Shown: positions 47,411 through 63,714, numbered from the stretch's first letter. The stretch is 64,000 bases of DNA from Acidobacteriota bacterium (GCA_963666055.2 CAXWPH010000014.1:288001-352000), one strand, 5' to 3'. Translations and numbers: made by a program. The notes: generated by a model from the letters alone, not told the origin.

Positions 47411-47908
47411 ATGGTCGAGGCGGAGGCACGAATCAAGCGCTGGCTCTCGGTACCGGGGAGCTCGGCCGCGTTGCAGCCGATCGTGCGGAACATGGCACGT
47501 CTGTTCGCGCCGCGTCACCGGATCGGTGTGTTCGTCGCTACCTTCGACAACGACGACCGCGTGCTCCTGCTGCGGCACGTACTGCATCCGGCGGCTCCCT
47601 GGGGTCTGCCTGGCGGCTGGCTGGCGCGGCATGAGCGGCCGCAGGACGGAGCCCGGCGCGAGTTCCTTGAGGAGACCGGGCTCGACGTCGAAATCGGAGA
47701 GATAGCTCAGCTCGAGATCGAGAGCGAGCCCGAACACGTAACGATCGTATTTCTGGGCCGGGTGCTCGCCGGTGACGTTCGGCTCGGCGCCGAGATTACC
47801 GACCATGGGTGGTTCGACGAGGGAGAGTTACCGACCGGCACGCCGCCATTCTTCAGGGCCGCGATTCGGCATGCGGCGCAACGGGCGCGCGAGGTCGATC
47901 CGCGATGA
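47411..47908 (+). CDS. NUDIX hydrolase
   Basis: WGLPGG.....E.P..GARREFLEETG. Confidence 0.9.
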   Translation: MVEAEARIKRWLSVPGSSAALQPIVRNMARLFAPRHRIGVFVATFDNDDRVLLLRHVLHPAAPWGLPGGWLARHERPQDGARREFLEETGLDVEIGEIAQLEIESEPEHVTIVFLGRVLAGDVRLGAEITDHGWFDEGELPTGTPPFFRAAIRHAAQRAREVDPR

Positions 47909-49041
47909 CGCTCCGCGTTGGCATCGATGCACGGTTCGTCGATCCGGCCTACCCGGGGATAGGGCGTTACGTGTCTAATCTGATTCCCGCGCTAACTCGC
48001 CAGGCCGGCATCGGTCGAGTATGCGTCTTCCACCGCACCGAGCAACCACTCGACCCCCTGGCGCGCGGAGCACGCCCAGATACCTTGCTCTGGATAAGGG
48101 TGCGGGCGCGGGTGCGATCGCTGGCTGAGCAGCTCGAGCTGCCGCGTCTGGCACAGCGCCACCGACTCGACGTGTTCCACGCGCCCTACGTGCTAGCGCC
48201 CATGCGCCTCCCCTGCCCCATGGTGGTGAACGTTTACGACCTGATTCCGCTCCGCCCCGACGGCGGCCTGTCGACGCCGAGAAGAGCGGCCTTCCGGCAG
48301 CTGGTTCGGCTGGCAATGCGGCGCGCCGACGTCGTGGTGGCGCTGTCGGAAGCGGCTCGGGCGCAGATCAACGCCACGTTTCCGCGTGCTCCAACACCGA
48401 TCCATGTAACACCGGCAGCGGCGGGCGAAGAGTTCCGGCCGATCGGCGCCGCTGCGAGCCGCGCGGCGCTCGCCGGGCTGAGCCTTCCCGAGAGCTACCT
48501 GCTCTACGTTGGTGCTCGGCGACCCCACAAGAACCTGGCCCGGCTGCTGGAAGCCTGGGGACGGCTTGGAGACGACAGGCAAGGGGCGCAGTTGCTGCTC
48601 GCCGGCGCCACCGGTGGCGATGAGATGCCGAGCTCCTCCGCGGCGGCGAGTCGTGAGCTCGACAACGTGCGGATCCTCGGTCGTATTCCCAACGCCGTAT
48701 TGCCACCCTTGTACTCGCGAGCCCAGGGGTACGTGCAACCGTCCATCGAGGAAGGATTCGGGTTTACAGTGCTCGAGGCGATGGCCTGCGGTGTCCCCGT
48801 CGCCTGCTCGGCAACGGCCGGCCTCCGCGAGCTCACAGGCTCGGCAGCGATCCACTTCGATCCGTTCAACACGGGCTCCATCGCTGCCGCCCTTCGACAC
48901 CTGCTTGCCGACGAGCGCGGCCGCGCCGATCGAATCCGCGCCGGTCTGTGGCGCGCCGCCGAGCTCGATTGGAACCATACCGCCGCCTCCACGGTCGAGA
49001 TCTACCGGGATATCGCCCGACCGGCGGCACGGGTGGCGTAA
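47905..49041 (+). CDS. GT4 glycosyltransferase (mannosyltransferase-like)
   Basis: IDAR, GIGRY, PHKNL, EGFG..VLEAMACG.PV. Confidence 0.92.
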   Translation: MTLRVGIDARFVDPAYPGIGRYVSNLIPALTRQAGIGRVCVFHRTEQPLDPLARGARPDTLLWIRVRARVRSLAEQLELPRLAQRHRLDVFHAPYVLAPMRLPCPMVVNVYDLIPLRPDGGLSTPRRAAFRQLVRLAMRRADVVVALSEAARAQINATFPRAPTPIHVTPAAAGEEFRPIGAAASRAALAGLSLPESYLLYVGARRPHKNLARLLEAWGRLGDDRQGAQLLLAGATGGDEMPSSSAAASRELDNVRILGRIPNAVLPPLYSRAQGYVQPSIEEGFGFTVLEAMACGVPVACSATAGLRELTGSAAIHFDPFNTGSIAAALRHLLADERGRADRIRAGLWRAAELDWNHTAASTVEIYRDIARPAARVA

Positions 49042-49046
49042 GTCGG

Positions 49047-49072
49047 ATGCGGGTTCTGCACGTGTACAAGGA
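49047..49072 (+). other. Displaced original 5' end of the GT4 gene at 56240 (attL-like)
   Basis: ATG CGG GTT CTG CAC GTG TAC AAG GA = MRVLHVYKD, 5 nt after the upstream GT stop. Confidence 0.85.
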
Positions 49073-49296
49073 TCTAACCGCCTAGTTGTCGTCGCCCGCT
49101 TCTCCGTTGGTCTCGGGCAGCAGCGACACCTGCCCGTCATTCTCGGGTCTACGTGTGTGGTCGTGGACTGTGATGATCTCGTTTCGCTTGTCTAGGCTGC
49201 CATCGCGTAATCGGCGCACGATGCTACGCAGTTCAAGGCTGAGCAGTCCGCCTGCTCCCCTACCCCGTCCGCCCACAGCAAGCCGGAGAGACGAAC

Positions 49297-49422
49297 ATGA
49301 TGCGTAGCCGACTTGCCCTGGTGATCATCGTCGTTCTGTTAGCGTTTGCCTGGCACTCATCGTCGTTCGAATCATCTAGCGCACCCTCCCGTGGTGAGAG
49401 CCGATCTATTCCGCTAGGCTGA
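49297..49422 (+). pseudogene. Signal-peptide-only stub truncated by repeat R1
   Basis: GGAG RBS; MMRSRLALVIIVVLLAFAW runs into the repeat. Confidence 0.5.
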
Positions 49423-49444
49423 GCAGCCTTTGCAGCGCACCGCC
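49386..49444 (+). repeat. 59-bp island direct repeat R1
   Basis: 56/59 identical to R2 and to R3. Confidence 0.95.
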
Positions 49445-49562
49445 CCTTCCGGAACCCGCGACCGGCGATCCGTACACCCGAGACTGATCGACCATGACCC
49501 CGACCACCTACCGAGTCCCCTACACCAAGCGTCCACAGCGAGCAGGAGGAGAACAACACCGG

Positions 49563-50696
49563 ATGACCGCACTTCGCAGCGTTTCAGGGATCGCCGCCAC
49601 GCTCGGGATCTTGATCTACGTCTGGGTGATGGGGCCCGCGGAGGCCGTTTCCGCGCCGGCGTCACCGTCAAACCCGGCTGTAGGAGGCACCGCCGCGCGA
49701 GCCGCTGGCGACTGCCCGACCAGCAACTTCCCGGAGGTCAGCGCCGATCCCGCAAATGGTGCTTACCCGGATCCCTCGGTGCAAGTCTCGTGCAACTCGA
49801 AGTACCTCAAGGTGAGGAGCAACGGCATCCCGAACTATGAGTTCGTGCAGACTACGCCCAACGAGCTGCAGGCACAGGACCACACGTTCAAAGTGCCGCT
49901 GTATCCGGCGCTGGTGGGCGAGACGACCGAAATTCCGCTGCTGGACACCGTCGCCTTCGCGGTCAACGGCATTCCGATCTTTGGCCCCAACGAGGGGCCT
50001 TTGCCTGATCCGTTCGGCGATCCGGTGTTCAACGGCCTTCTCGACGATTGCCTGGGACACACCGCAGAGCGCGGCGACTATCACTACCACGCCATGCTGG
50101 TCACGTGTCCGATCGAGGGTATTATCGGGCGTACTGATGCCTCCCCGGTGATCGGCTATGCCAACGACGGGTTCCCGATCTACGGTCCGTTCGGATGCAG
50201 CGATGCGGACTGCTCGAAGGTCATCGAGTATCAGAGCGCCTGGCAGCAGATCGGCGACCCATCGACGTTCGCCTGGGACGCCTACGAGTACGCTGAGCGC
50301 AAGCAGGACAAGTACCTCGATCAATGCAACGGGCACGAGGGACCCCAGGGCGATTACCACTATCACGCCACCGAGGACTTCCCCTACCTCCTCGGTTGCT
50401 ACTCGGGCAGCGAGGATCCCGGTGCGGCGCCGCCGAGCAACCTGCGGGCCAAGACGCGCTCGAACCAACGCGTACTGCTTCGCTGGAAGGACAACGCCAA
50501 GAGCGAGACCGGCTATCGGGTGGAGATGGCCGCCGGCGACGGGGACTTCGAGGCCGTTACGGAGACTGGCAAGAACGTCAAGAAGTACCTGGTCGAGGAC
50601 CTCGAGGCCGGTGAGACCTATACTTTTCGCGTGCGCGCACTGAGCAAAGCCGGCGTTTCCAACCCATCAAGCGCGGTGTCTGCTACCGCGAAGTGA
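49563..50696 (+). CDS. Secreted YHYH-domain protein with C-terminal fibronectin type III domain
   Basis: Two DYHYHA motifs, IGYA.DGFPIYG; FN3 PSNL...L.W.DN...ETGY..Y.FRVRA. Confidence 0.9.
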   Translation: MTALRSVSGIAATLGILIYVWVMGPAEAVSAPASPSNPAVGGTAARAAGDCPTSNFPEVSADPANGAYPDPSVQVSCNSKYLKVRSNGIPNYEFVQTTPNELQAQDHTFKVPLYPALVGETTEIPLLDTVAFAVNGIPIFGPNEGPLPDPFGDPVFNGLLDDCLGHTAERGDYHYHAMLVTCPIEGIIGRTDASPVIGYANDGFPIYGPFGCSDADCSKVIEYQSAWQQIGDPSTFAWDAYEYAERKQDKYLDQCNGHEGPQGDYHYHATEDFPYLLGCYSGSEDPGAAPPSNLRAKTRSNQRVLLRWKDNAKSETGYRVEMAAGDGDFEAVTETGKNVKKYLVEDLEAGETYTFRVRALSKAGVSNPSSAVSATAK

Positions 50697-50797
50697 TCTC
50701 TCCCGGAGTGCAGGAGCGTAGGGAACCAGGCTCGGAATAGGCGTGAATACCGTGAAGGTCGGGCGCGAACAGCATCTCGACCGGCAAGGCGAATCCT

Positions 50798-51136
50798 ATG
50801 CGGAACCAGCTGACGGAAGTAGCGACGAGTGAGCTACAACGCCACGTAGAGCGCCTACACGACTGCGCAGCGACCTGCAGCGCCGCAGTTGAGGTCCATG
50901 ATCGCTTCGGTAGCGAGACGGCATGGCGTGGCGTCGTCCACGTCTTCGACCTCACGTACCATCCCACGGCTGACCTTTGCTACGCTTGGTCGTCACCCGT
51001 GGCCGGATCTCGGAAGCGGCGTTTCTACGCGGTTCTACACACCGAGCAGGTGGACTCGCCCGCGAAAGCGGTTCGGGCTGCGATTGTCAAAGACTTCAAG
51101 AGAGAGAGTCAGTGGTTGGGGGTTAAGCGCGATTAG
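50798..51136 (+). CDS. Hypothetical protein, mobile-element type
   Basis: 112-aa globular ORF with W.G.V.VFDL..HP.A..CYAWS and SP..AVRAAI. Confidence 0.7.
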   Translation: MRNQLTEVATSELQRHVERLHDCAATCSAAVEVHDRFGSETAWRGVVHVFDLTYHPTADLCYAWSSPVAGSRKRRFYAVLHTEQVDSPAKAVRAAIVKDFKRESQWLGVKRD

Positions 51137-51237
51137 TCGCAGCGTTCAAATTAGGACACCACCTGATGTTGGGTCTTGTCGGTGTCAGCGGGCCAGGATT
51201 CATACATACACCCACGGTTTTGTCGAGAGGTCCTTAT

Positions 51238-51296
51238 CTCCCGTGGTGAGAGCCGATCTATTCCGCTAGGCTGAGCAGCCTTTCCGGAGCACCGCC
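51238..51296 (+). repeat. 59-bp island direct repeat R2
   Basis: 57/59 identical to R3. Confidence 0.95.
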
Positions 51297-51421
51297 GACG
51301 GTAGCCCGGATCAGTGATGACCGCAGACCCCTTCCCGGACCTGCGAGCGAAAGGGAGCAAGAACGAAACATGACTGCGGTCGCTTTGTAGTTGGCGACCG
51401 AAGGACTAACGGGAGGTAGCA

Positions 51422-51655
51422 ATGGCACTCATTGAGTGTTGGGGCTGCGGGCACCAGGTGTCGGATAAGGAGATGAGGTGCGCCGGTTGTGGGACCCCGA
51501 TCGCCAAAGAGGAACCCATCGCGGCGCCCGTTGAAACCACCGCTGGGCCGCGCGACACGGACAATGCGTCCGAGCAAAAAACCCCGCACGCTCTTTCCGC
51601 GAGACTCGCCAAGCGTCTAGCAGGGCTCCGCGCCAAGGCCCGCAAGAGCGAGTGA
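51422..51655 (+). CDS. Zinc-ribbon protein (chimeric or internally deleted)
   Basis: GGGAGG RBS; MALIECWGCGHQVSD...CAGCG.P; tail homologous to the 52168 protein. Confidence 0.75.
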   Translation: MALIECWGCGHQVSDKEMRCAGCGTPIAKEEPIAAPVETTAGPRDTDNASEQKTPHALSARLAKRLAGLRAKARKSE

Positions 51656-51779
51656 CCCCGACCACCTACCGAGTCCTCTGCCCGGGAGCACGAATAGCCA
51701 CGTGACCGACGACGACGGGGACCAAAAGCAAGAGCGCCCGCCGAACACGAACGACTCTTCTTGCGGTCGTTCGTCTGTG

Positions 51780-51920
51780 TCAGCGCTGACCCCGCGACCC
51801 GCCGCTGTGCCTTTGTACTCTTCGGTCGACGCTCCGCTGTGCCTTCGTGTTCTTCGGATCGCGCAAGATCCTGCCGGCTTTCGACGCCACCTTCCTCGAT
51901 GTTCTCTTGTTCTTCGCCAA
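51780..51920 (-). pseudogene. Small basic phage-type protein with a 32-bp internal duplication
   Basis: GGGAGG RBS + TTG; AKNKRTSRKVASKAGRILRDPKNTKAQRSV, with tail VAGSALTQ in another frame. Confidence 0.55.
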
Positions 51921-52034
51921 CTTGCCTCCCGTCGTCTTGCATGCTCGGAACGCCCCTCCGGATTCTACCAGTCGGCTCCGAAACCCTTCGGAAGAGCGGT
52001 CGCGACGCCTCCCCTCGCAAATCGCCCGGCAGCT

Positions 52035-52093
52035 CTCCCGTGGTGAGAGCCGATCGATTCCGCTAGGCTGAGCAGCCTTTGCGGAGCACCGCC
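52035..52093 (+). repeat. 59-bp island direct repeat R3
   Basis: Seen directly. Confidence 0.95.
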
Positions 52094-52167
52094 GACGGCA
52101 ACCCGGAGCAGGCACACCGAAATGACCCCCGCCACCTACCGAGTCCCCGAGTGAGCAGCCGCCGCGC

Positions 52168-52497
52168 ATGAGCAAGCCGGGCTTCGTCGCTGGCGGGCAC
52201 TACTCGGCCTACGTGGAGGTTCGTCGCCTCAAGCGGATAGGCGACCTCGATGGCGCCACGGAGCTTCTCCTGCGCCTGGTGGACGCCACAGAGGCCGAGG
52301 CCGCCGCCGAGAGCGAAGGCTGCGGGGTTGATCCGTGGTACTACGAGCAGCTTGCGATGATCTACCGGAAGAAGAAGCAGTCAGCCGATGAGCTCGCGAT
52401 CCTCGAGCGGTACGAACGACAAGCGAAGGTCCCTGGGGCCGTTCCAGAGAGGCTGGCTAATCGCCTGGCCGGCCTGCGACCCAAGGCGGACGAATGA
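52168..52497 (+). CDS. Hypothetical helical (TPR-like) protein
   Basis: 109-aa ORF, PWYYEQLAMIYRK...E.AILERY. Confidence 0.7.
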   Translation: MSKPGFVAGGHYSAYVEVRRLKRIGDLDGATELLLRLVDATEAEAAAESEGCGVDPWYYEQLAMIYRKKKQSADELAILERYERQAKVPGAVPERLANRLAGLRPKADE

Positions 52498-52850
52498 GAG
52501 GCCGTTCCGCCGTCACCCCGCGCCCTGTCGCCTACCCCCGCTGCACGTTCGGCACCTACCTCGGCGAGTTGATCGACGCTCACCCTACCTCAAGACCCAG
52601 GCTAGCCGAGCGAATCGGCGTGTCTCCGGGGAACCTCAGCAACTACCGCCACGGACGCTACCTCCCGCCGGACCGCAAGGCTATCGGCGTGATCGCCCGA
52701 GTGCTCGCACCGACCAGCGCACAGCAGCCAGAGATCCGCGCGGAGCTCACGCGCCGCTGGATCGCTGACCTGCTAGATGTGCACCTACGCGGGGGCGGCG
52801 TGTCGATGGATGAGGCGCGGTTGGCGATCCGCGATCTAGCGAGGCGCTGA
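52494..52850 (+). CDS. XRE-family HTH protein
   Basis: FG..L..L...LAERIGVSPGNLSNYRHGRYLPP; ATGA overlap. Confidence 0.75.
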   Translation: MRGRSAVTPRPVAYPRCTFGTYLGELIDAHPTSRPRLAERIGVSPGNLSNYRHGRYLPPDRKAIGVIARVLAPTSAQQPEIRAELTRRWIADLLDVHLRGGGVSMDEARLAIRDLARR

Positions 52851-53110
52851 CGTGACGCAGGCGGAGGCGCGGCGGGCGATTGAGGATACGGCGGGGGCAC
52901 GGAGGCGGAGGTAGAGGAACGGCCAACAGCGCGCCAGCCACAGCCCCGGAGCTGTCGAGTTCACGCTCTGCGGCCTCTGTTTGTTTCAAGCTCCGACAGG
53001 GACTACCGTCAGCCAAACATGTCAACAGCGTCCCCCGCTGGAGCACCCCGAAGCGATGATTGTCCTCTATCGTGCTTCTATCGATCAGTCACCTCGAACA
53101 GAGGGCTCCA

Positions 53111-55306
53111 ATGGCTGACGTGTGGGCCCATCTCAAGGCCGACCCAATAATCAGAATCACGGGCCTGCTCTACACCGGCCTCATTCTGGTGTACGGGATC
53201 TCCTTGCTGTCGAGCTGGCAGCTGGCCAGCCTCGGTGACTACCTCGATTTCATTTTTGCCGCCCTCGCAGTCTGGGCACTTCTGTACGGAGTGAGACAGA
53301 TCAAGCACCCAGAGGAACGAAGGTTTTGGTTATTGATCGCCTGTGGGGTCGCGGCCTTCCTAGTAATCGAGATCTTGTATCTCCCCGCGCCCGATGCTGA
53401 GGCAATCCAGCTCCAGACCCGCGAGGGACTTCTGGCTTTGCTGTATTACGCAGCGGTTTTCTTGGCTGTTTCAGCGAACCCTCACCTAAAGCCCGGATGG
53501 AGCCGCGGGAACAGACGGTATTGGACTACGTCCACCGCAAGCCTTCTCTTCGTACTGGGATCAGTAGCCTACGTTTTTCTCATTCAGATAACGGTCGTCC
53601 GCGGTGCTGAATCCTACGTGCCGAATCTACTCATGTACCTCTGTCTCGATGCCTTGGTCGCTGGAACGTTCGTGTACCTCAGCAGAACGTGCGGGAGCAT
53701 TCGTTGGAGAAACCTCTACGCCCTACTGGCAGTGGGATGGGGTCTGTGGGCGATCGCGTCCTCTGTCGATCTCCTGGCGGCTTTGAGCGTATGGCCGCTT
53801 GGTTACAGGGCGGAAACAATCCTTGAATTTACCGTGCCCTACTTGCCACTCATCGCAGTCGCACGATTGCGGCACTACGCAGCTCCCCAACAAACGCCTG
53901 CCGAAGACCACAAGCGGACCTCTCGACAGAGTCCACTAAGACTTGGAGGTTCACCGATCCTGTATCTCACGGTACTCCCGCTATTCCATTTCGGCGGTTA
54001 CTGGGCAGAGATATTCAGTCCGGACGCGAAGCCATATCGAGAGTTCATAATGCTGTCTGTGGTTCTCGTCCTCGCAGCTCTAGCCTTCGTGAACCAGAAG
54101 CAGCTGGAGTCGGAGCGGCGAATCCTCGAGGAGCAGGCGCGCCAATCGCAGAAGATGGAAGCTGTCGGCACTCTTGCTGGAGGAGTGGCCCACGACTTCA
54201 ACAACATGCTCACGGCCATCATTGGTAACGCCGAGCTTCTACGGAGCGACGATCTGAACCTCACCGACCGGCAGCGCGCAGAGGTCGAGGAGATCAGGAA
54301 AGCCTCGGAGCGTGCCACCTCTTTGACCCAGCAGCTCCTGGCCTTCGGCCGTCGGCAGATGCTGGCGCCCGAGGTAGTCGATTTGAACGCCTCCGTGGCC
54401 GAAATGCAGAAGTTGCTCCGCCGCTTGATCGGCGAGGACGTCGAGCTGATCACCGAGCTCGACTCTGCGCTGGGCAGCGTCAAGGCCGACCCGGCACAGA
54501 TCGATCAGGTGATCATGAACCTCGCAATCAACGCCCGAGACGCGATGCCCGAAGGCGGTGAGATCAGGATCGGGACGGCGAACGCGGATGTGGACGAGGC
54601 CGAGGCACAAGTGCAGGACGGCATGGTGCCGGGCCGCTATGTGATGCTGGTGGTGAGCGATACGGGTTCCGGCATGGACGCGGAGACCCGGGAGAAGATC
54701 TTCGAGCCCTTCTTTACCACCAAGGACACGGGCGCAGGGACGGGTCTGGGACTATCGACGGTCTACGGGATCGTCAAACAGAGCGACGGCTTTATCGGCG
54801 TTGATAGCGAGCCGGGGCATGGCACGACGTTCAAGATCTACCTGCCGCGGGTCGATGAGCCCATCGAGCCGCCCGAACCCAGCACTGTCATCTCGCTGCA
54901 GGGCATGGAGACTGTGCTGCTGGTGGAAGACGAAGAGATGTTGCGCGCCCTGGCCCGCCAGGTCCTCCAGAGGAACGGGTACAGGGTTCTAGAGGCGTCG
55001 GGGGGGCCAGAGGCCGTCGAGATCTTCGAGCGGCACGAGGGGCCGATCAACCTGCTGCTAACTGATGTGGTGATGCCGAAAATGAGCGGCCACGAGCTGG
55101 CGCAGCGGTTGACCATGCTGAGCCCGGAACTGAAGGTGCTGTATATATCGGGCTACGCGGAACAGGAACTCGTCGGCCGCGGTTTGTCGAGTAACAGCTG
55201 GGCTTTACTTCAGAAGCCGTTCACACCGGACGCGCTGGCGCGCAGGGTGCGCGAGCTCCTGGATTCTCCCGGCAACGGGGCAGAAGGCTTGCCGTCAATC
55301 GTGTGA
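53111..55306 (+). CDS. Membrane hybrid sensor histidine kinase/receiver (CckA-like core)
   Basis: About 10 TM helices; [31 protein letters not shown]; receiver VEDE/TDVVMP. Confidence 0.93.
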
Positions 55307-55474
55307 ACGTTGGTGCCCATGCCTCCATTCTACGGCTCTGCATCTGCCCGGCAGGACCGACGATCCCGCCGCCATCACGACTCACGAGATCATCGGGCCG
55401 GCGCCGCAGCCAGTATTGGCGCCGTCATTCCCAGCGCCTGTGCCCCGATTGGGGCACAGGGATCCACACTGAAA

Positions 55475-55750
55475 ATGAATATAGCGACGTTGAACGTGGG
55501 GCTGCGAAGCTTAAAGGCTGACCTAGCTTCCTGGCAGGCACGTGCCGCGCGCATCGCGTGCCTACTTGACGACTACGAGATTGACGTAGTCCTTTTCCAG
55601 GAACTCTTCGCTGTGCAGTGGGAGTCGGCGAGTGATTGGCTTCGTTCCTTGATGAAGGAGGCCGGCTTGCCGGAAGCAGATTTCAGCAAGTCCAATATCC
55701 TCAGGCAGGCACTTCCTTCGTTCCACATCGCAGAGGAACTCATTCATTGA
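55475..55750 (+). pseudogene. Endonuclease/exonuclease/phosphatase N-terminal fragment
   Basis: IATLNV...DVVLFQE, stops after 91 codons. Confidence 0.6.
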
Positions 55751-56105
55751 GGCACACCGCAGGGCGGCCTATTCTGGGGCCTTGGAGTCGCCTCACGTTT
55801 TCCGATCCTCGTTTCGGAGCATCACGATCTCACCGGATGTACGAACAGGCTCACGCCCCGCATCCAGCCCCGCGCCTCCAGCGCCTCCTCCACTGTCGCC
55901 CGACCCCACGGCTCGTAGGCCTTGTACAGGCGCACCGTCGGGAACCTGGGTGGAGCGCCGAGACCAGAGGCGATCACGGCGGAGATGGAGCAAATCTACC
56001 CTTCGAACGAAGGAGCTGAACCGGGGTCGGGGTTCGCCAGATCCGCGAGTAGTCGTGCTAGCCTCTCGAGCACGTCGGAGCAGATCAGGCGGAAGTGCCT
56101 CACGC

Positions 56106-56186
56106 CCGCACCCACCGCGATTCCCAGGGTGCGTATAGGGTGCGGAATGAGCACCCAACTGTGAGCTGGTGCCAAGTTGGTGCCAA
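56106..56186 (-). repeat. Island-end motif: 51-bp CGCACCC element plus TGGTGCCAA direct repeat (11-bp period)
   Basis: Seen directly; resembles arm-type recombinase sites. Confidence 0.7.
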
Positions 56187-56239
56187 AAACGGCTCGAAAC
56201 CACCCTGTTTTGCTGACCTTGACCCCCTAAAATCAACCT

Positions 56240-57334
56240 GTGCGCATACTGCATGTCTACAAGGACTATCCACCGGTAATCGGCGGCATCGAGGGGCACA
56301 TACGTCTGCTCGCAGAGGCGCAGGCTCAACGCGGGCTGGAGGTGACCGTGCTGGCCACCTCGCCTGACCGCCGCACATCGATCGACCAGGAGCATGGCGT
56401 ACGGGTGGTCCGCGCCGGCCGGCTTGGGGAGCTGGCTTCGACACCCATCAGCCTGCGGTTGGTGCGACAACTGCGACGCGAGCGCGCCGACGTGGTGCAT
56501 GTGCACATGCCGTATCCGTTGGCTGAGCTTGCCGAGCTCACCATGGGGGGCGGGCGCCCTTGTGTGGTGACCTACCACAGCGATGTGGTGCGGCAGCGAA
56601 CGTGGGCAGGATTGCTCGGCCCGCTGCGCAGGCGGTTCTTGCGACGCACCCGATGTGTGCTGGCTACCAGTGCCGCGTATGTGCGCAGCTCTCCGACCCT
56701 GAGCCGCATGCGCGACAAGTGCCGGGTCGTTCCCCTGGGCGTCGACATCGACCGCTTCGCCGAGCCCGAGCGCACCGTCCGGTCGCCGATCGACGTGGAT
56801 GGACAGGTCGTCCTGTTCGTAGGCCGTTTCCGCCACTACAAGGGGCTGTCCGTTCTGGTCGAGGCGATGACGCGACTCGACGCCAACTTGGTGCTGGTGG
56901 GCGACGGAGCCGAACGAGCCCGTCTCGAGCGTCAGATTCGCCACTCCCCGGCGCGTTCTCGCGTCAGTATTCTCAGCGACGTCACCGACGAGGAGCTGCC
57001 CGGTTGCTACGCTCGCGCCGACGTCGTCGTGTTCCCTTCAACGGAGCGCAGCGAGGCCTTCGGGTTGACGCTGGTCGAGGCCATGGCGAGCGGCACTCCG
57101 GTGGTCAGCACCGAGCTGAGCACTGGAACGAGCGAAGTGAACGAGCATGGCGTTACCGGCTTGGTGGTGCCCCCCGACGATCCGGCGGCACTGCGGGATG
57201 CGCTCCACACGCTGCTGGCAGACACGGCGCTGCGACAGCGCATGGGGCGCGCCGCGTCGCACCGTGCTCGTGCGAGCTACGCCGCGAACCAGATGGTCGA
57301 CGCCACCCTCGACGCCTACGAGGACGCCCTGTGA
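56240..57334 (+). CDS. GT4 glycosyltransferase with an island-supplied 5' end
   Basis: MRILHVYKDYPP..GGIE, H.H.PYP, VTYHSD, YKG, RSEAFG...VEAMASG.PV. Confidence 0.93.
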   Translation: MRILHVYKDYPPVIGGIEGHIRLLAEAQAQRGLEVTVLATSPDRRTSIDQEHGVRVVRAGRLGELASTPISLRLVRQLRRERADVVHVHMPYPLAELAELTMGGGRPCVVTYHSDVVRQRTWAGLLGPLRRRFLRRTRCVLATSAAYVRSSPTLSRMRDKCRVVPLGVDIDRFAEPERTVRSPIDVDGQVVLFVGRFRHYKGLSVLVEAMTRLDANLVLVGDGAERARLERQIRHSPARSRVSILSDVTDEELPGCYARADVVVFPSTERSEAFGLTLVEAMASGTPVVSTELSTGTSEVNEHGVTGLVVPPDDPAALRDALHTLLADTALRQRMGRAASHRARASYAANQMVDATLDAYEDAL

Positions 57335-58463
57335 GCTCGCACCTCGCACCCGCATCGCCACGTGAGAAACGCAGTGCGCGGGAGTCCGGGGGAACTTCAC
57401 CAGGAGTGCTGACTGCGATAGAGCGAGACGTCGTGACGACCATTGCCTACGCCAACATGTTCGACTATCCGCTCACCCTGCCGGAGATACATCGCTACCT
57501 CGTCGGCACCGCCGCAGATCTGGCCGAAGTGACCGCGACGGTCGACCGGTTGGAGGGACGGGGCATCGAGCGTCGCGACGGCTATGTGTTCGTCGCCGGA
57601 CGTCGCCGCACCGTCGACATGCGGCTCCGCCGCCGGCGTTCGAGCGCACCCCGATGGGACACCGCGCGACGCTACGCGCGGGCCTTGAGCCGGTGCCCGT
57701 TCGTACGGATGGTGGCGGTGTGTGGCTCGTTGGCAGTAGACAACGCCGACGACCACGGCGATATCGACATCTTCTGCATCACCGTCCGTGGGCGGCTCTG
57801 GTGGGGGCAGACGGCGGCGATGCTGTTGCGCCGGTTGCCGGCGTTGGCGCGCCAACGTATCTGTCCGAACTCCTTTCTGTCAGCGGGCAGCCTGCGCTTA
57901 GACGACCGCAACCTGTACACCGCCCACGAGATCATCCAGGCTGTGCCACTAGCCGGTGAGGCCGTCTATCGCGAGTTCGTCGACGCCAACGACTGGCTCG
58001 ACGAGCTACTACCCAACGCGCGCAGTGCAGAAATAGACAACACTGGCGGGGCCACCGATGCGCCCGACGGCGGACCATGGGGTGGCCACCAAGGCCGAGG
58101 CGCCGCGTTCGTCGAACGTCTGTTCGCCGGCCGGTTCGGGGACGCGCTCGACCGCGTGGCTTATGAAACGTTGCTCCGTTACTACGGGCTGCGGCTGCGC
58201 GCCCGCGGCGTAGCCCTGCAACAGCTGCGCCACTACTACCGCCGCGATCGCCAACTGGTGGTTGGTGGGGGCTACGAGGCCATCGTTCGATGCCGGTTTG
58301 CCGAGCACTTGCGCGAGCTTCTCGGCGACCCTGGCGCCGCGGCGCCAGGGTCGCGCGCCTGCTCCCTGTTGGCGACGCCAGCACCGCGAACGGGCCGCAC
58401 AGCCGGCAATCGCCGCTGCTGTACGAGCAACAGTTCGAGGCTCGCTACGGAGCAGACCAGTGA
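57331..58463 (+). CDS. Pol-beta-superfamily nucleotidyltransferase-like protein (frameshift at ~58345)
   Basis: FDYPLT..EI; V.GSLA..N....DIDIF.IT..GRLW; C.N; RNLYTAHE. GTGA overlaps at both ends imply one missing base. Confidence 0.72.
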
Positions 58464-60046
58464 GCGACCTGTTGGTGGGCCAGTCCTATTTCCTACGCTT
58501 CGACCCGAAGCTCCACCGGGCAATGCGGCCGCAGCCGCCACTGGGATCGTTGTGGGCCGCATCGTGCGCCCGCGAGCAAGGCCACTCGGTGCAGGTGTTC
58601 GACGCCATGCTTGCAGAGTCGGAGGACGACTGGGCGACGGCGCTGGAGCAAGCGCATCCGCGTTTCGCTGTGCTGTTCGAAGACAACTTCAACTACCTGT
58701 CGAAGATGTGTCTGCTGCGCATGCGCGAGGCGGCGTTTCGCATGATCGCAATGGCACGCAAACGCCAGTGCGAGGTAATCGTATGCGGCTCCGATGCCAC
58801 CGATCACTCGCCTGAGTACCTCGAGCAGGGGGCCGACTACGTGCTCAGCGGCGAGGGCGAGGCCACCTTGATCGAGCTCTTGGCCTCGCGTACCGGGCGC
58901 GGCGAACAACCCGTGGAAGCGATCGCAGGTCTGCGCTTCCTGGCAGCCGATGGCAGCCTTCGCGACACCGGCAGCCGGCCGCTGCTAACCGATCTCGATG
59001 CGTTGCCTGCACCGGCGCGGGACCTGATCGACATGGAGCGCTATGCGTCGATCTGGCGGCAACGCCACGGTGTGTTCTCGCTGAACATGGCCACCACCCG
59101 CGGCTGTCCGTTTCACTGCAACTGGTGCGCCAAGCCCATCTGGGGGCAGGCGTACCACATCCGTAGCCCTGAGCACGTGGTCACCGAGATGGCGCAACTA
59201 GTCGAGCAATACGGCGTGGAGCACATCGACTTCGCCGACGACATCATGGGACTGCAGCCTGGATGGCTGGGGCAATTTGCCGACTGCCTTGCCGACGCCG
59301 GGCTCGGCGTGCCCTACAAGTGTCTGAGCCGCACCGACCTGCTGTTGCGCAAAGGCGAGATCGACGCGCTGCGACGCTCCGGTTGCAGCACCGTCTGGAT
59401 GGGGGCAGAGTCGGGCTCGCAGAAGATCCTCGATGCGATGGAGAAGGGCACCACGGTCGAGCAGGTCGAGGAGGCCAGCGCGAAGCTGCGCCAGGCGGGA
59501 ATTGGCGTCGGGTTCTTCCTGCAGTTTGGTTATCCGGGCGAGACCTACGCTGACATCGATCAGACGCGAAGGCTGGTGCGACGCTGCTCGCCCGATGAGA
59601 TCGGCATCTCGGTGTCGTACCCGCTGCCCGGCACCAAGTTCCATGATCGCGTTCAGGAGCAGTTCGGCGCGCAGCGCAACTGGGTAGATTCCGACGACAT
59701 GGCAATGCTCTACGCCGGCCCGTACAGCCCCTCGTTCTACCGTCGGCTGTACCGCGTTGTGCAGCTCGAGTTCCGTCGCGACCGAGCGCTTGCCGAGTCC
59801 ATCGGCCGCGATCACCGCCCGACCTCGACGCGCCGACGACGACTGCGGTGTGTCGCCGCAGCCACGGCGCACACCCTGCGCTTGCCATTCGAGCGTTGGC
59901 AGTTACAACGGCTGCGGCGGCAATCGCCGGGCGGGCCGCAGCTCACCGCGCAGCCGGTCGATCGTGAAGATGCCGCCACTCCGACCCCGCAGCCTGCGCC
60001 GCACCCCACCCCGCAGCCAACCGCGCTGCGAGCCCCGCAAGGCTGA
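58460..60046 (+). CDS. B12-binding radical SAM protein 1
   Basis: PPLG, GEGE.T, RGCPFHCNWC, FADD, GAESGSQ. Confidence 0.92.
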   Translation: MSDLLVGQSYFLRFDPKLHRAMRPQPPLGSLWAASCAREQGHSVQVFDAMLAESEDDWATALEQAHPRFAVLFEDNFNYLSKMCLLRMREAAFRMIAMARKRQCEVIVCGSDATDHSPEYLEQGADYVLSGEGEATLIELLASRTGRGEQPVEAIAGLRFLAADGSLRDTGSRPLLTDLDALPAPARDLIDMERYASIWRQRHGVFSLNMATTRGCPFHCNWCAKPIWGQAYHIRSPEHVVTEMAQLVEQYGVEHIDFADDIMGLQPGWLGQFADCLADAGLGVPYKCLSRTDLLLRKGEIDALRRSGCSTVWMGAESGSQKILDAMEKGTTVEQVEEASAKLRQAGIGVGFFLQFGYPGETYADIDQTRRLVRRCSPDEIGISVSYPLPGTKFHDRVQEQFGAQRNWVDSDDMAMLYAGPYSPSFYRRLYRVVQLEFRRDRALAESIGRDHRPTSTRRRRLRCVAAATAHTLRLPFERWQLQRLRRQSPGGPQLTAQPVDREDAATPTPQPAPHPTPQPTALRAPQG

Positions 60047-60051
60047 GAGCG

Positions 60052-61434
60052 ATGCGGCGGAATGTCGTCCTGTACAACCCGCAGGCGGTCTTCTTCACCA
60101 TGCCGCTCGGTCTCCTGGCGGTCGGATCGGCGCTCGACCCCAGCCGCTATTCGGTACGGATCATCGATGCCCGGCTGGAAGCGAGGCCGCATGAAGCGCT
60201 CGTTACCGCCGCCAAGGACGCCGTTTGTGTGGGGATCGGCGCGCTGGCGGCTTCCAGAGCCATCAAGAGCCGCTTCCCCGAGCTGCCCGTGGTGTGGGGC
60301 GGCTGGCACCCGTCGCTCTTTCCGACCGCGACGCTCCAGGAGCCCGCCATCGACATAACGGTGCAGGGGCAAGGCGAGCAGACGTTCGCCGAGCTCGTTG
60401 AGCGGCTAAACCGGGGCGATGACCTGGCGGGATTGCCAGGCATCGCCTATCGGGACGGCGACCGTGCATTGCAGAACGCCCCGCGCGCACTTGCCTCCAT
60501 GGACGAGCTGCCACAGCCGGACTACGGGCTCATCGACGTGCCCGCCTACTTCGCCAGGAAGGGCACGCCGCAGTTCGATTTCATCTCCTCGACCGGTTGC
60601 CATTTCCGCTGCGCCTTCTGCGCCGATCCATTCGTATACAAGCGCGGCTGGGTGGCGCTGTCGCCGCCGCGCTTCGGCGACCTGATCGAGGAGCATTGGC
60701 GCCGCTATCGCTTCGATGAGCTGGCGTTCCAGGACGAGACCTTCTTCACCTACCGCGATCGTGTGGCGGCGATCGCCGAGGAGATCCTGCGGCGCGACCT
60801 GCGCTTCAGCTGGACGGCGACGATGCGCGCCGACCAGGGGACTCGGCTCACCAACGAGATCTTCGAGCACTGCGTACGCTCGGGCATGAGCCGGCTGCTG
60901 ATCGGGGTGGAGTCGGGCGATCAGGCAACGCTCGATTGGATGCAGAAGGACATCACGATCGACCAGGTCATGCAGTGCGCCGAGCTTTGCGCACGCCACC
61001 GAGTCGGAGCGCAGTTCCCGTTCATCGTCGGCTTCCCCGGAGAGCGATACGAGAGCGTCGAGCGCTCGCTGCGGCTGGCGCACCGGCTGCGTCGCATGAG
61101 CCCGCGCTTCGAGACGCCGATCTTCTACTTCAAGCCCTACCCGGGCTCGCCGATCACCGCGCAGGCGGTGCGAGACGGATACGAGCTACCGGCCGATCTG
61201 CAGGGTTGGGCCGACTTCGACTTCATCGGCTCCGCCGGCCCCTGGGTGAGCGCTGAGCTCTTTCGCCATGTCGAGCGGTTCAAGTTCTACAACCGTTTCG
61301 CCGGCGGGCCGGACAGGTTGCTCAAGCGACCGCTCTCTTGGTTGGCTCGCTGGCGCTGCCGACACGATTTCTTCGCGCTGCCGATAGAGAAGCTCGTCGT
61401 TGAGCAACTGGCGCCCACACCGCAGCTTTCCTGA
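60052..61434 (+). CDS. B12-binding radical SAM protein 2
   Basis: MPLGLL, WGGWHPS, GQGE.T, GCHFRCAFC, FQDE, GVESG. Confidence 0.92.
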   Translation: MRRNVVLYNPQAVFFTMPLGLLAVGSALDPSRYSVRIIDARLEARPHEALVTAAKDAVCVGIGALAASRAIKSRFPELPVVWGGWHPSLFPTATLQEPAIDITVQGQGEQTFAELVERLNRGDDLAGLPGIAYRDGDRALQNAPRALASMDELPQPDYGLIDVPAYFARKGTPQFDFISSTGCHFRCAFCADPFVYKRGWVALSPPRFGDLIEEHWRRYRFDELAFQDETFFTYRDRVAAIAEEILRRDLRFSWTATMRADQGTRLTNEIFEHCVRSGMSRLLIGVESGDQATLDWMQKDITIDQVMQCAELCARHRVGAQFPFIVGFPGERYESVERSLRLAHRLRRMSPRFETPIFYFKPYPGSPITAQAVRDGYELPADLQGWADFDFIGSAGPWVSAELFRHVERFKFYNRFAGGPDRLLKRPLSWLARWRCRHDFFALPIEKLVVEQLAPTPQLS

Positions 61435-61438
61435 GCCC

Positions 61439-62866
61439 ATGAACCTACTGCTCACCCACGCGTATTTTCTCCAGCAGGACAGACACGAGCAGCAGCTCAT
61501 GCGCCCGTATCCGCCCCTCGGGCTCCTCTATATCTCGGCCTACCTCAAAGCGCACGGGACAGAGGTGGCTGTCTTCGACACCACCTTCAGCTCGCGGCAC
61601 GAGTTCCGCCGCCACCTGCAGCGTACGCGGCCCCGCATCGTCGGCATCTACGTCAACCTGATGACACGCGCTAGCGCCCTCCAGACGATCTCCGACTGTC
61701 GCGAGTTCGGCAGCATCGTGGTGGTGGGCGGACCGGAGCCGGCCGGGTACGCCGACGAGTACCTCACAGCCGGCGCCGACGTCGTGGTGGACGGCGAGGG
61801 TGAGATCACCCTACGGGAGCTGGTGCCGCACCTGCTGGAACACGGCGTTGCGGACCTCGATGCGATCGACGGGATCATCTACCGCCCCGACACATCGAAC
61901 GGTGCCGACCAACGCGCCCCCGTACGCACAGCCGCGAGAGCACAGATCAGCGATCTGGATACGCTTCCCGACCCCGACCGCGAGGCCATCGACATTGATC
62001 GCTATGTCGACGTGTGGCGCACCCATCATGGGGCCGGCTCGGTATCGTTGATCACCGCTCGAGGGTGCCCGTACAAGTGCAATTGGTGCAGCCACAGCGT
62101 GTTCGGCTTCTCTCACCGGCGTCGATCCCCGGTGCGTGTCGCCGACGAGCTCGAGCACATCGTGAGCCGCTACCGCCCCGACCAGGTCTGGTATGCCGAC
62201 GACGTGTTCACGATCAATCATCGCTGGCTTCACGAGTACGGTGACGAACTGGAGCGCCGTGGTCTCCGGGTGCCATTCGAGACCATCTCGCGCGAGGATC
62301 GCCTCGATACCGAGAGCATCGCGCGACTCGCCTCCATGGGGTGCCGCCGCCTATGGGTTGGCGCGGAGAGTGGATCGCAGCGTGTCCTCGACGCTATGCA
62401 GCGCCAGACAGACGCACCGCGCGTCGAGCAGATCGTCCACGAGCTACAACAACACGGCATCGAGGTCGGTCTGTTCATCATGCTCGGCTACGAAGGCGAG
62501 CGGATGAGCGACATCGAGGAGACCGTGGCGTTTCTCAAACGGGCACGGCCAGACCGCTTCGTTACCACGGTTGCCTATCCCATCAGGGGAACCAAGTACT
62601 ATCAGCGCGTCTCGGATCGGCTCGTCGTGCCGCAGTCGTGGGCGACCAGCACCGATCGCGACATCTCGGTGCGTGGCAGGCACTCCGACAGGTTTTATCG
62701 CTGCGCCACCCGCTGGATGGTCAACGAGGTCGAGCGCGCGCGCCTACGCAGCAGCGACCGACCCGGCTATGGGCGGCTCGCCCGCGCCACCGTCAAGGCC
62801 CACGTAGGGCGTCTCGGTATGCACCTCCTGCGGCACCAGCAGCGGACTGCAGCACCGCAGCCATGA
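61439..62866 (+). CDS. B12-binding radical SAM protein 3
   Basis: PYPPLGLLY, GGP, GEGE.T, RGCPYKCNWC, YADD, GAESGSQ. Confidence 0.93.
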   Translation: MNLLLTHAYFLQQDRHEQQLMRPYPPLGLLYISAYLKAHGTEVAVFDTTFSSRHEFRRHLQRTRPRIVGIYVNLMTRASALQTISDCREFGSIVVVGGPEPAGYADEYLTAGADVVVDGEGEITLRELVPHLLEHGVADLDAIDGIIYRPDTSNGADQRAPVRTAARAQISDLDTLPDPDREAIDIDRYVDVWRTHHGAGSVSLITARGCPYKCNWCSHSVFGFSHRRRSPVRVADELEHIVSRYRPDQVWYADDVFTINHRWLHEYGDELERRGLRVPFETISREDRLDTESIARLASMGCRRLWVGAESGSQRVLDAMQRQTDAPRVEQIVHELQQHGIEVGLFIMLGYEGERMSDIEETVAFLKRARPDRFVTTVAYPIRGTKYYQRVSDRLVVPQSWATSTDRDISVRGRHSDRFYRCATRWMVNEVERARLRSSDRPGYGRLARATVKAHVGRLGMHLLRHQQRTAAPQP

Positions 62867-63714
62867 ACACACTGCCCGCCTCGCTCGTTGGCGCTTCGGC
62901 CGCCTTCGACGACCTCGCAAACGATTACGACCGCACCTTCAGCCACCGGACCCTAGGGCGCTGGTTGCGTCAATCGGTGCATTCTCGGCTGCGTGCATAC
63001 ACGGCAGGCGATCGCGTCATCGAGCTCGGCTGCGGTACCGGCGAGGACGCGCTGTGGCTGGCTCAGCGCGGTGTGCGTGTGGTGGCCATCGACGCTTCGG
63101 CGGCAATGCTGTCGGTAGCCGAGCGCAAGCTCCGCAGCGCCGGGCTCGCCGATCGCGTGCGCCTGCAACAGGTCGATCTCAATGCGCCTCCGACCGACCT
63201 GCAACGAGCGCTGGCGGGCGACGAGCCGGTCAACAACGAGCTCTTCGACGGTTGTCTGTCGAACTTCGGCGCACTCAACTGCGTCGGTGCTCGCCCGGCG
63301 CTCGCCGGCGCGGTCGCCAGCGTTATGCGCCCCGGCGCACGACTCACGGTTGTCGTGATGGGCCCCGTATGCCCCTGGGAGATCGCCTCGTTCACGCTCC
63401 GCGGCCGGCTACCGAGCGCCTGCCGGCGGCGGCGTGGACGCGCCCGCGCGCCTATCGGCGACCACACCGTCGTCGTCGACTATCCGACCCCGCGGCGCCT
63501 GCGGCGTGAGCTGACACCGTGGTTTCGAGCTCTCGGCACGCGTGGGATCGGCGTCTTGCTACCGCCCTCGCAGCTCGCCCACCTCGTGGAGCGGCGCACG
63601 GCGGCATTCGAGCGCTTGCGTCGCTGGGAGGAGCGCATCGCACACCTACGACCGGCCGCGTGGTTAAGCGATCACTACCTACTGGAGATGGAGCGTCGTG
63701 ACGATGAACTGTGA
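62863..63714 (+). CDS. Class I SAM-dependent methyltransferase
   Basis: FD.LA..YD..F, ELGCGTGEDA, SNFGALNC; ATGA overlap. Confidence 0.9.
   Translation: MNTLPASLVGASAAFDDLANDYDRTFSHRTLGRWLRQSVHSRLRAYTAGDRVIELGCGTGEDALWLAQRGVRVVAIDASAAMLSVAERKLRSAGLADRVRLQQVDLNAPPTDLQRALAGDEPVNNELFDGCLSNFGALNCVGARPALAGAVASVMRPGARLTVVVMGPVCPWEIASFTLRGRLPSACRRRRGRARAPIGDHTVVVDYPTPRRLRRELTPWFRALGTRGIGVLLPPSQLAHLVERRTAAFERLRRWEERIAHLRPAAWLSDHYLLEMERRDDEL

Follow-up and report, generated by a model that had tools for sequence, protein, structure and literature searches.

How can a gene that is split near its 5' end by more than 7 kb of inserted DNA keep a complete reading frame? The question is raised by a stretch of 64,000 nucleotides from an Acidobacteriota bacterium (GCA_963666055.2 CAXWPH010000014.1:288001-352000; the whole stretch is termed the window, its genome G000, and positions are counted from its first letter), where an island lies in codons 7-9 of a glycosyltransferase (GT) gene of family GT4. 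The reading favoured here, with a probability of roughly 0.8, is that the island is a grounded remnant of a prophage-type element, inserted by a tyrosine integrase of a lineage-restricted family, which supplied the GT4 gene with an in-frame start. The junctions consist of the following features:

49047..49085, + strand: left junction, stranded native 5' stub of the target GT; 26 of 27 nt as in the intact start of G002, a sister genome
49065..49072, + strand: left copy of the 8-bp identity block TACAAGGA, codons 7-9
49073..56265, no strand: island, 7193 bp, without integrase, left arm repeat missing
56240..56257, + strand: element-supplied codons 1-6 (MRILHV); 15 of 18 nt as in the element end of genome G004, 12 of 18 as in the native start
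56258..56265, + strand: right copy of TACAAGGA
56240..57334, + strand: target GT4 gene, intact, 364 aa; pairwise dN/dS (non-synonymous to synonymous rate ratio) 0.18-0.26

The stub opens with an ATG at 49047, 5 nt downstream of the stop codon of an upstream GT4 gene, and the repaired gene opens with a GTG at 56240. The two starts are identical at 20 of 26 nt, four of the six mismatches falling in third codon positions, and the exact 8-bp repeat lies in frame inside the target at both junctions. Each copy is found 18 nt past its start codon, so that deletion of 49073-56265 would be in frame. The element provides both the in-frame start and the new N-terminus. These points had been made in a first-pass annotation of the sequence, which proposed an island in codons 7-9, a recoded 5' end and seamless removal, and they held on closer analysis. 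The annotation also had the stub peptide, MRVLHVYKD, right; the stop said to follow it directly comes three codons later, after LTA. On its own the 20/26 match is weak, as it is reached at three sites among 11.45 million genome positions; it is position, frame and the empty alleles in relatives that carry the argument. Single contigs bridge the left junction in three of four sequencing runs in one check and in all four in a second, and the right junction in four of four in both; they show 0-2 differences, the runs coming from two studies, one possibly the source of the assembly. The island has a GC content of 0.618, its flanks 0.674 and 0.663. In the repaired gene, codons 10-13 (56266-56278) differ from G002 at three third positions, each time to A or T, and the element-derived or adapted stretch may extend beyond the 8-bp block.

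Does the site exist without the island? A GT search in 41 genomes gave a match at E below 1e-40 in 11, ten of them in the order and one from another family of the phylum, where the gene context is different. The site is empty in eight of the ten order-level orthologues, with the upstream GT adjoining the target GT in all eight. It is occupied in G000 and G004 only, and as these sit on different host branches, the site has been used repeatedly. The G004 island is 1710 bp long, interrupts the same codons, has arm repeats at both ends and carries unrelated cargo and no integrase; its right end is 86% identical to that of G000 over 140 nt. The two replacement starts are identical at 24 of 27 nt and all three differences are synonymous, from which we infer that selection may act on the replacement peptide. 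Empty alleles, a second island and replacement codons that differ only synonymously support the earlier proposal of a site-specific element specialised for a GT4 gene. The annotation had also called for islands at this GT in relatives and for their integrase; the G004 island answers the first call, and the GT islands carry no integrase that would answer the second.

Which enzyme could have inserted the island? As had been noted, no integrase is recognisable: none of the 30 PF00589 matches of the genome falls inside it. The lead comes from its right end, where the arm-like repeat pointed out earlier was found as described, with copies starting at 56167 and 56178.

56167..56186, + strand: right arm-type tandem repeat TGGTGCCAA x2; identical in the G004 island, matched by the family model

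Homologous ends have in common an arm-type repeat in tandem and a run of C, followed after 27 nt by a degenerate 6-bp core. One island with the same end type, in an SRAP gene on contig C10 of G000, holds the last 168 codons of a tyrosine integrase, the 3' end of which overlaps the left arm. Full-length homologues have 337-371 aa, with intact copies on C1 of both G004 and G007, and the residues R, K, HxxR, H and Y are invariant in all 11 that were aligned; R-K-H-R-H-Y is the catalytic signature of tyrosine recombinases. This is a narrow family, with 14 representatives out of 1.84 billion matching at E below 1e-30, and it occurs in six of 401 genomes of the phylum, every one in the same order. 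Integrases of one clade stand beside several of the homologous ends at other targets. In elements that carry family integrases or ends there are portal, terminase, Sak4-like, exonuclease, repressor-like, DnaC-like and excisionase genes, and the larger members of the family therefore look like prophages.

Membership in a family that uses several targets goes beyond what the first-pass annotation had claimed. A model of the element ends has 32 matches in eight of 26 genomes of the order, nine of them in G000, training ends included. A second target is a GST gene, which the island at G000 C12:397995-399935 (L203) and its G002 counterpart (C8:17970-20820) split and provide with an in-register GTG start; G003 and G004 have the empty site. 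This GST stub was missed by the automatic direct-repeat search and recovered through relatives. A third is the SRAP gene, split in G000 at C10:103300-105160 (L222) and supplied with an ATG; element-type ends are present at this site in G002, G003 and G008, and it is empty in G004. The SRAP core begins at the start codon, directly before Cys2, a residue that SRAP proteins require. There is also an element on C15, with an excisionase-like gene; it occupies an intergenic core, which G002 has without insertion. A further lineage, in G004 and G007, has entered coding genes at numerous places, using loose GGTG...CACC palindromes (L268, L279, L280, L281, L284, L285 and L300; ends L241, L248, L253, L257, L261 and L262). 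In a tree of the integrases (23 rows, several of them fragments; branching order among lineages unresolved) these promiscuous copies are one supported group inside a supported 17-row clade.

How did an element end come to resemble the start of its target? About 20 homologous ends can be compared, 20 of 21 having been recovered in register. The peptide RILH after the start is seen only in the two GT ends (BLOSUM score 20 vs at most 1 for the other 18), as is a GTG 15 nt before the core. A GTG 18 nt before the core, the position of the native GST start, is seen only in the two GST ends, the peptides of which otherwise resemble the native GST start weakly. Host DNA does not appear to have been captured; the replacement start seems to have come about through mutations in one fixed segment at the end of the element. 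It is likely that the ends of this prophage family were tuned separately to three unrelated host genes (GT4, GST and SRAP). The fuller proposal stands at even chances: one narrow prophage integrase family would have switched targets repeatedly, a 15-18-nt end stretch being rewritten as a GT4, GST or SRAP start, the GT version with a leaderless promoter, while a sister lineage that inserts into many genes persists.

How is the repaired gene expressed? Integration separates it from the upstream operon genes, and no purine-rich ribosome site is seen before the GTG at 56240. A candidate element lies close to the start:

56228..56233, + strand: TAAAAT hexamer, conserved in G004 and 6 nt upstream of the GTG; candidate -10 box of a leaderless promoter

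In G000, TANNNT stands at a spacing of 6 before 57 of 3809 candidate ATG starts, vs 5-32 at other spacings, and internal controls give 24 of 9085. A leaderless promoter of the form TAAAAT-N6-GTG is predicted for the GT ends, at about even odds. As a side observation, the TANNNT peak, which across the genome falls 6-7 nt upstream of candidate ATGs, suggests that G000 has a class of leaderless genes.

Put together, the history would run as follows. A tyrosine integrase of the family would have exchanged strands within the TACAAGGA block; the attachment site of the element would have brought a start codon, five recoded codons and the candidate leaderless promoter, and the GT and the downstream radical-SAM genes would stay expressed though cut off from the upstream operon. 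Integrase, left arm and phage genes would have been lost afterwards, and the site would have filled with cargo modules exchanged with other G000 islands at two repeats, D1 and D2.

Several points weigh against this reading and its extension to other targets. Only two occupied genomes are known, neither of their GT islands holds an integrase, and the enzyme is assigned only through the homology of the ends. A likeness of the G000 and G004 left ends, first seen by eye, was dropped after a shuffle test (1584 of 5000 shuffles scored as high). For a phage origin of the G000 copy the evidence is its family and a single weak match of a zinc-ribbon protein. Pairwise dN/dS, which in all ten GT pairs fits a working gene, cannot tell selection before insertion from selection after it. 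The end model was built from 11 ends out of four of the genomes searched, and its weakest match (G014, E 0.009) looks like chance. As to the promoter, there is no TANNNT-N6 peak before GTG (16 vs 8-16), nothing was predicted by a sigma-70 scan, and the TAAAAT hexamer also stands in one SRAP end where no start codon follows at 6 nt.

Could the island still move? The annotation had called it eroded or mobilised in trans, and a non-autonomous satellite, excised and moved by an integrase encoded elsewhere, would find an intact right end and 8-bp block and 30 tyrosine-recombinase matches in G000; in G004, moreover, the copy has retained both arms and the genome encodes full-length family integrases. 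In the G000 island, however, no left arm repeat is present within the first 400 bp, and the G000 assembly (95.7% complete) has the family integrase only as the 168-aa C-terminal fragment on C10. The empty-site or circle junction that the annotation suggested looking for did not appear: three joints were seen in the contigs of four runs, none at the junctions, although contigs drop rare variants and cannot show absence. Present-day mobilisation in trans fits poorly and is unlikely, whereas erosion fits; the copy looks like a grounded, immobilised remnant.

Was there one insertion or two? The same target and homologous right ends in both occupied genomes might reflect a single insertion in the ancestor of the genus, followed by precise excision in G002 and G003. 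The stubs speak otherwise. That of G000 matches the intact start of G002 at 26 of 27 nt and that of G004 the start of G003 at 25 of 27 (with an acquired K-to-R change). The GT bodies, compared from codon 21 onward, pair in the same manner: G000 with empty G002 (synonymous difference, pS, 0.187) and occupied G004 with empty G003 (0.344), vs 0.52-0.55 for the cross pairs. A single event would need functionless stubs to have stayed nearly unchanged across a pS of about 0.5, and it leaves the unrelated cargo unexplained; we regard it as quite improbable. The agreement of each stub with the intact gene of the respective sister genome points to separate insertions in the two lineages, by related elements.

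Regulated gene integrity, in which excision would toggle the form or expression level of the GT as SPbeta does for spsM, has in its favour that a native start is kept at the left junction and that excision would re-couple the GT to its operon; since the GT is already whole while integrated, the excision machinery is missing and no excised form occurs among the contigs of the four runs, its probability is very small. That the stub is a chance match, the remnant of a tandem paralogue or an assembly error is barely credible: a 20/26 match does occur at two other genome positions, but the empty alleles of relatives carry the stub sequence as a true gene start, excluding the case of a paralogue stub without empty allele that had been named as refuting, and independent contigs span both junctions.

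The grounded remnant is a mosaic, with modules up to 97-98% identical to other islands of G000 and breakpoints at D1 and D2. It contains:

49385..49424, + strand: repeat D1, copy 1, about 40 bp; further copies at 51237-51276 and 52034-52073, at cargo-module breakpoints
49495..49521, + strand: repeat D2, copy 1; further copies at 51653-51679 and 52123-52149
49563..50696, + strand: cargo YHYH and FN3 protein (PF14240, PF00041)
50798..51136, + strand: cargo 112-aa hypothetical protein; copies on C6 and C13 share 97.6% of the DNA sequence
51422..51655, + strand: zinc-ribbon protein; match to phrog_6586, shared with a gene of the prophage-like element on C1 of G004
52168..52497, + strand: cargo 109-aa hypothetical protein; about ten further copies in the genome, no family match, Atlas neighbours unnamed
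52494..52850, + strand: Xre-type helix-turn-helix protein; PF13560, E 3e-4, slightly below the Pfam cut-off
53111..55306, + strand: cargo membrane hybrid histidine kinase; a second copy, flanked by D1 at C14:443.6k, is 90.8% identical over 2.2 kb
56108..56156, no strand: GCACCC/GGGTGC repeat block, common to five other island-like sites of the genome

Head, packaging, replication and integration genes were found neither by PHROGs, for four small island proteins, nor by Pfam, for the island open reading frames, and Rfam gave no match. At 55475-55750 a 91-codon frame, with no Pfam match, resembles by eye the start of an endonuclease/exonuclease/phosphatase protein. The other GCACCC/GGGTGC blocks of G000 are at C8:21.7k, C12:399.8k, C14:47.5k, C14:288.9k and C14:378.9k; the island-like ends that share the block differ in terminal sequence, and one of them adjoins the 3' end of a 3-hydroxyacyl-CoA dehydrogenase-like gene.

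What is D1? Its 26 copies occur in two of 26 genomes, the sisters G000 (15) and G002 (11); besides those of the window they lie on C2, C6, C7, C12, C13, C14 and C15 of G000. Often they stand in arrays; the 5' edge is fairly sharp and the flanking sequences are shuffled. A structured RNA or attC-like site was rejected (none of 12 predicted pairs covaries in 22 copies; no Rfam match), as was an integron-like cassette array (no covarying hairpin, and no integrase inside the island). D1 could be a recombination hotspot or site.

Around the island, the annotation saw a surface-modification operon, a label that the neighbours, which are NUDIX, GT4, B12 radical-SAM and methyltransferase genes, do not establish; among the NCBIfam families listed for the target and three other operon proteins none reaches the curated cut-off.

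47905..49041, + strand: upstream GT4 gene of the host operon (PF00534/PF13439)
57406..63714, + strand: downstream operon, with an unknown protein, three B12 radical-SAM genes and a methyltransferase

The upstream GT4 gene is apparently frameshifted in the G002 (L002) and G004 assemblies, where sequencing error is possible.

Other traces of the family are scattered through these genomes. In G004 and G007, left and right halves of apparently the same genes split by the GGTG...CACC lineage (ABC transporter, MATE-like) are separated by about 450 kb or placed on separate contigs, which suggests element-driven rearrangements. Family ends at G000 C11:87270-87370 and at L255 and L264 abut the stop of a gene ending in GYIQ-stop, a sulfatase in G000; the sulfatase 3' end is suggested as a possible integration target. 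At C8:21600-23200 (L227) a family end is followed by remnants of the small and large terminase subunits. The cargo of the G002 GST island, a TonB-receptor-like gene, is 95% identical to G000 C10:15453-17967. Further loci of G000 (C6:396-8029 and C13:58550-66187; tRNA clusters on C7 and C10; C5:65608) comprise segments duplicated between contigs, tRNA-SeC and an integrase among them, and an ARAGORN call of tRNA-Pyl. The automatic direct-repeat search gave no clear left junction for the ends on C3, C5, C8, C11 and C14 (47k, 289k and 379k).

Do complete GT-site elements exist elsewhere? None with an integrase was found in contig, viral and phage-record searches, the best phage-record match being 29%. 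The arm pattern had no match in metagenome contigs, and the integrase and two end patterns had none in viral contigs. Alignment of the GT against metagenome and genome contigs (two of 64 parts scanned) gave distant GT4s only, best 46% and 49%, at loci not checked for stubs; the end model had no match at these loci (all of the metagenome ones, part of the genome ones).

What do these findings add? The origin of a fitting replacement is usually visible only as the finished product, and here about 20 homologous ends from different targets, with those of the lineage that enters many coding genes among them, can be laid side by side. If the multi-target reading is true, they form a natural series from disruptive to harmless, gene-repairing integration. 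Integration can recur at a glycosyltransferase gene that is not a housekeeping gene, and the site can later act as a cargo hotspot. Of 1.76 million catalogued islands, 43.4% lie within coding sequences, and catalogues that require an integrase gene leave out integrase-less remnants (PMC12424338); the GT island is a remnant of that kind. No precedent for a GT or SRAP target, for the multi-target family or for an acidobacterial case was found in the literature; the TIGER and Islander listings, not covered by that search, may include GT, GST or SRAP targets.

The mechanism is the known SXT/dusA type. The dusA-specific integrative and mobilizable element (IME) IMEVchUSA3 and the integrative and conjugative element (ICE) SXT, at prfC, integrate into the 5' end of their targets through an imperfect repeat and bring an N-terminus and a promoter (PMC8409611). 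The GT island likewise sits in the 5' end of a protein gene, with an imperfect repeat and a new N-terminus. Unlike those elements as described, its target is a patchily distributed GT4 and not a translation-related housekeeping gene; its relatives are prophage-like, not conjugative or mobilisable, and it has lost its integrase, its promoter being only predicted. An SXT/R391 ICE or SGI1-like IME was rejected, as the Pfam scan of ten island open reading frames found no conjugation or mobilisation family and the target is not prfC, dusA, trmE or yicC. SPbeta is a prophage inside the polysaccharide-synthesis gene spsM of Bacillus subtilis (PMC4191935, PMC5499854); in these descriptions its integrase is of the serine type and spsM stays broken until excision, whereas the GT is whole while the island is integrated and the family integrase is of the tyrosine type, so that the SPbeta class of regulated integrity was also rejected. 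Phage attachment sites usually carry a replacement piece of the target, as for icd and tRNA genes, and in the helper-embedded phage-inducible chromosomal islands one integrase clade diversifies over many site groups, a promiscuous member included, as that report has it (PMC10111431). The integrase clade described here is similarly spread over several targets and includes a promiscuous lineage; those islands, as reported, disrupt phage late genes without replacing them, whereas here sister lineages rebuild three host gene starts from a segment at a fixed position in the element end.

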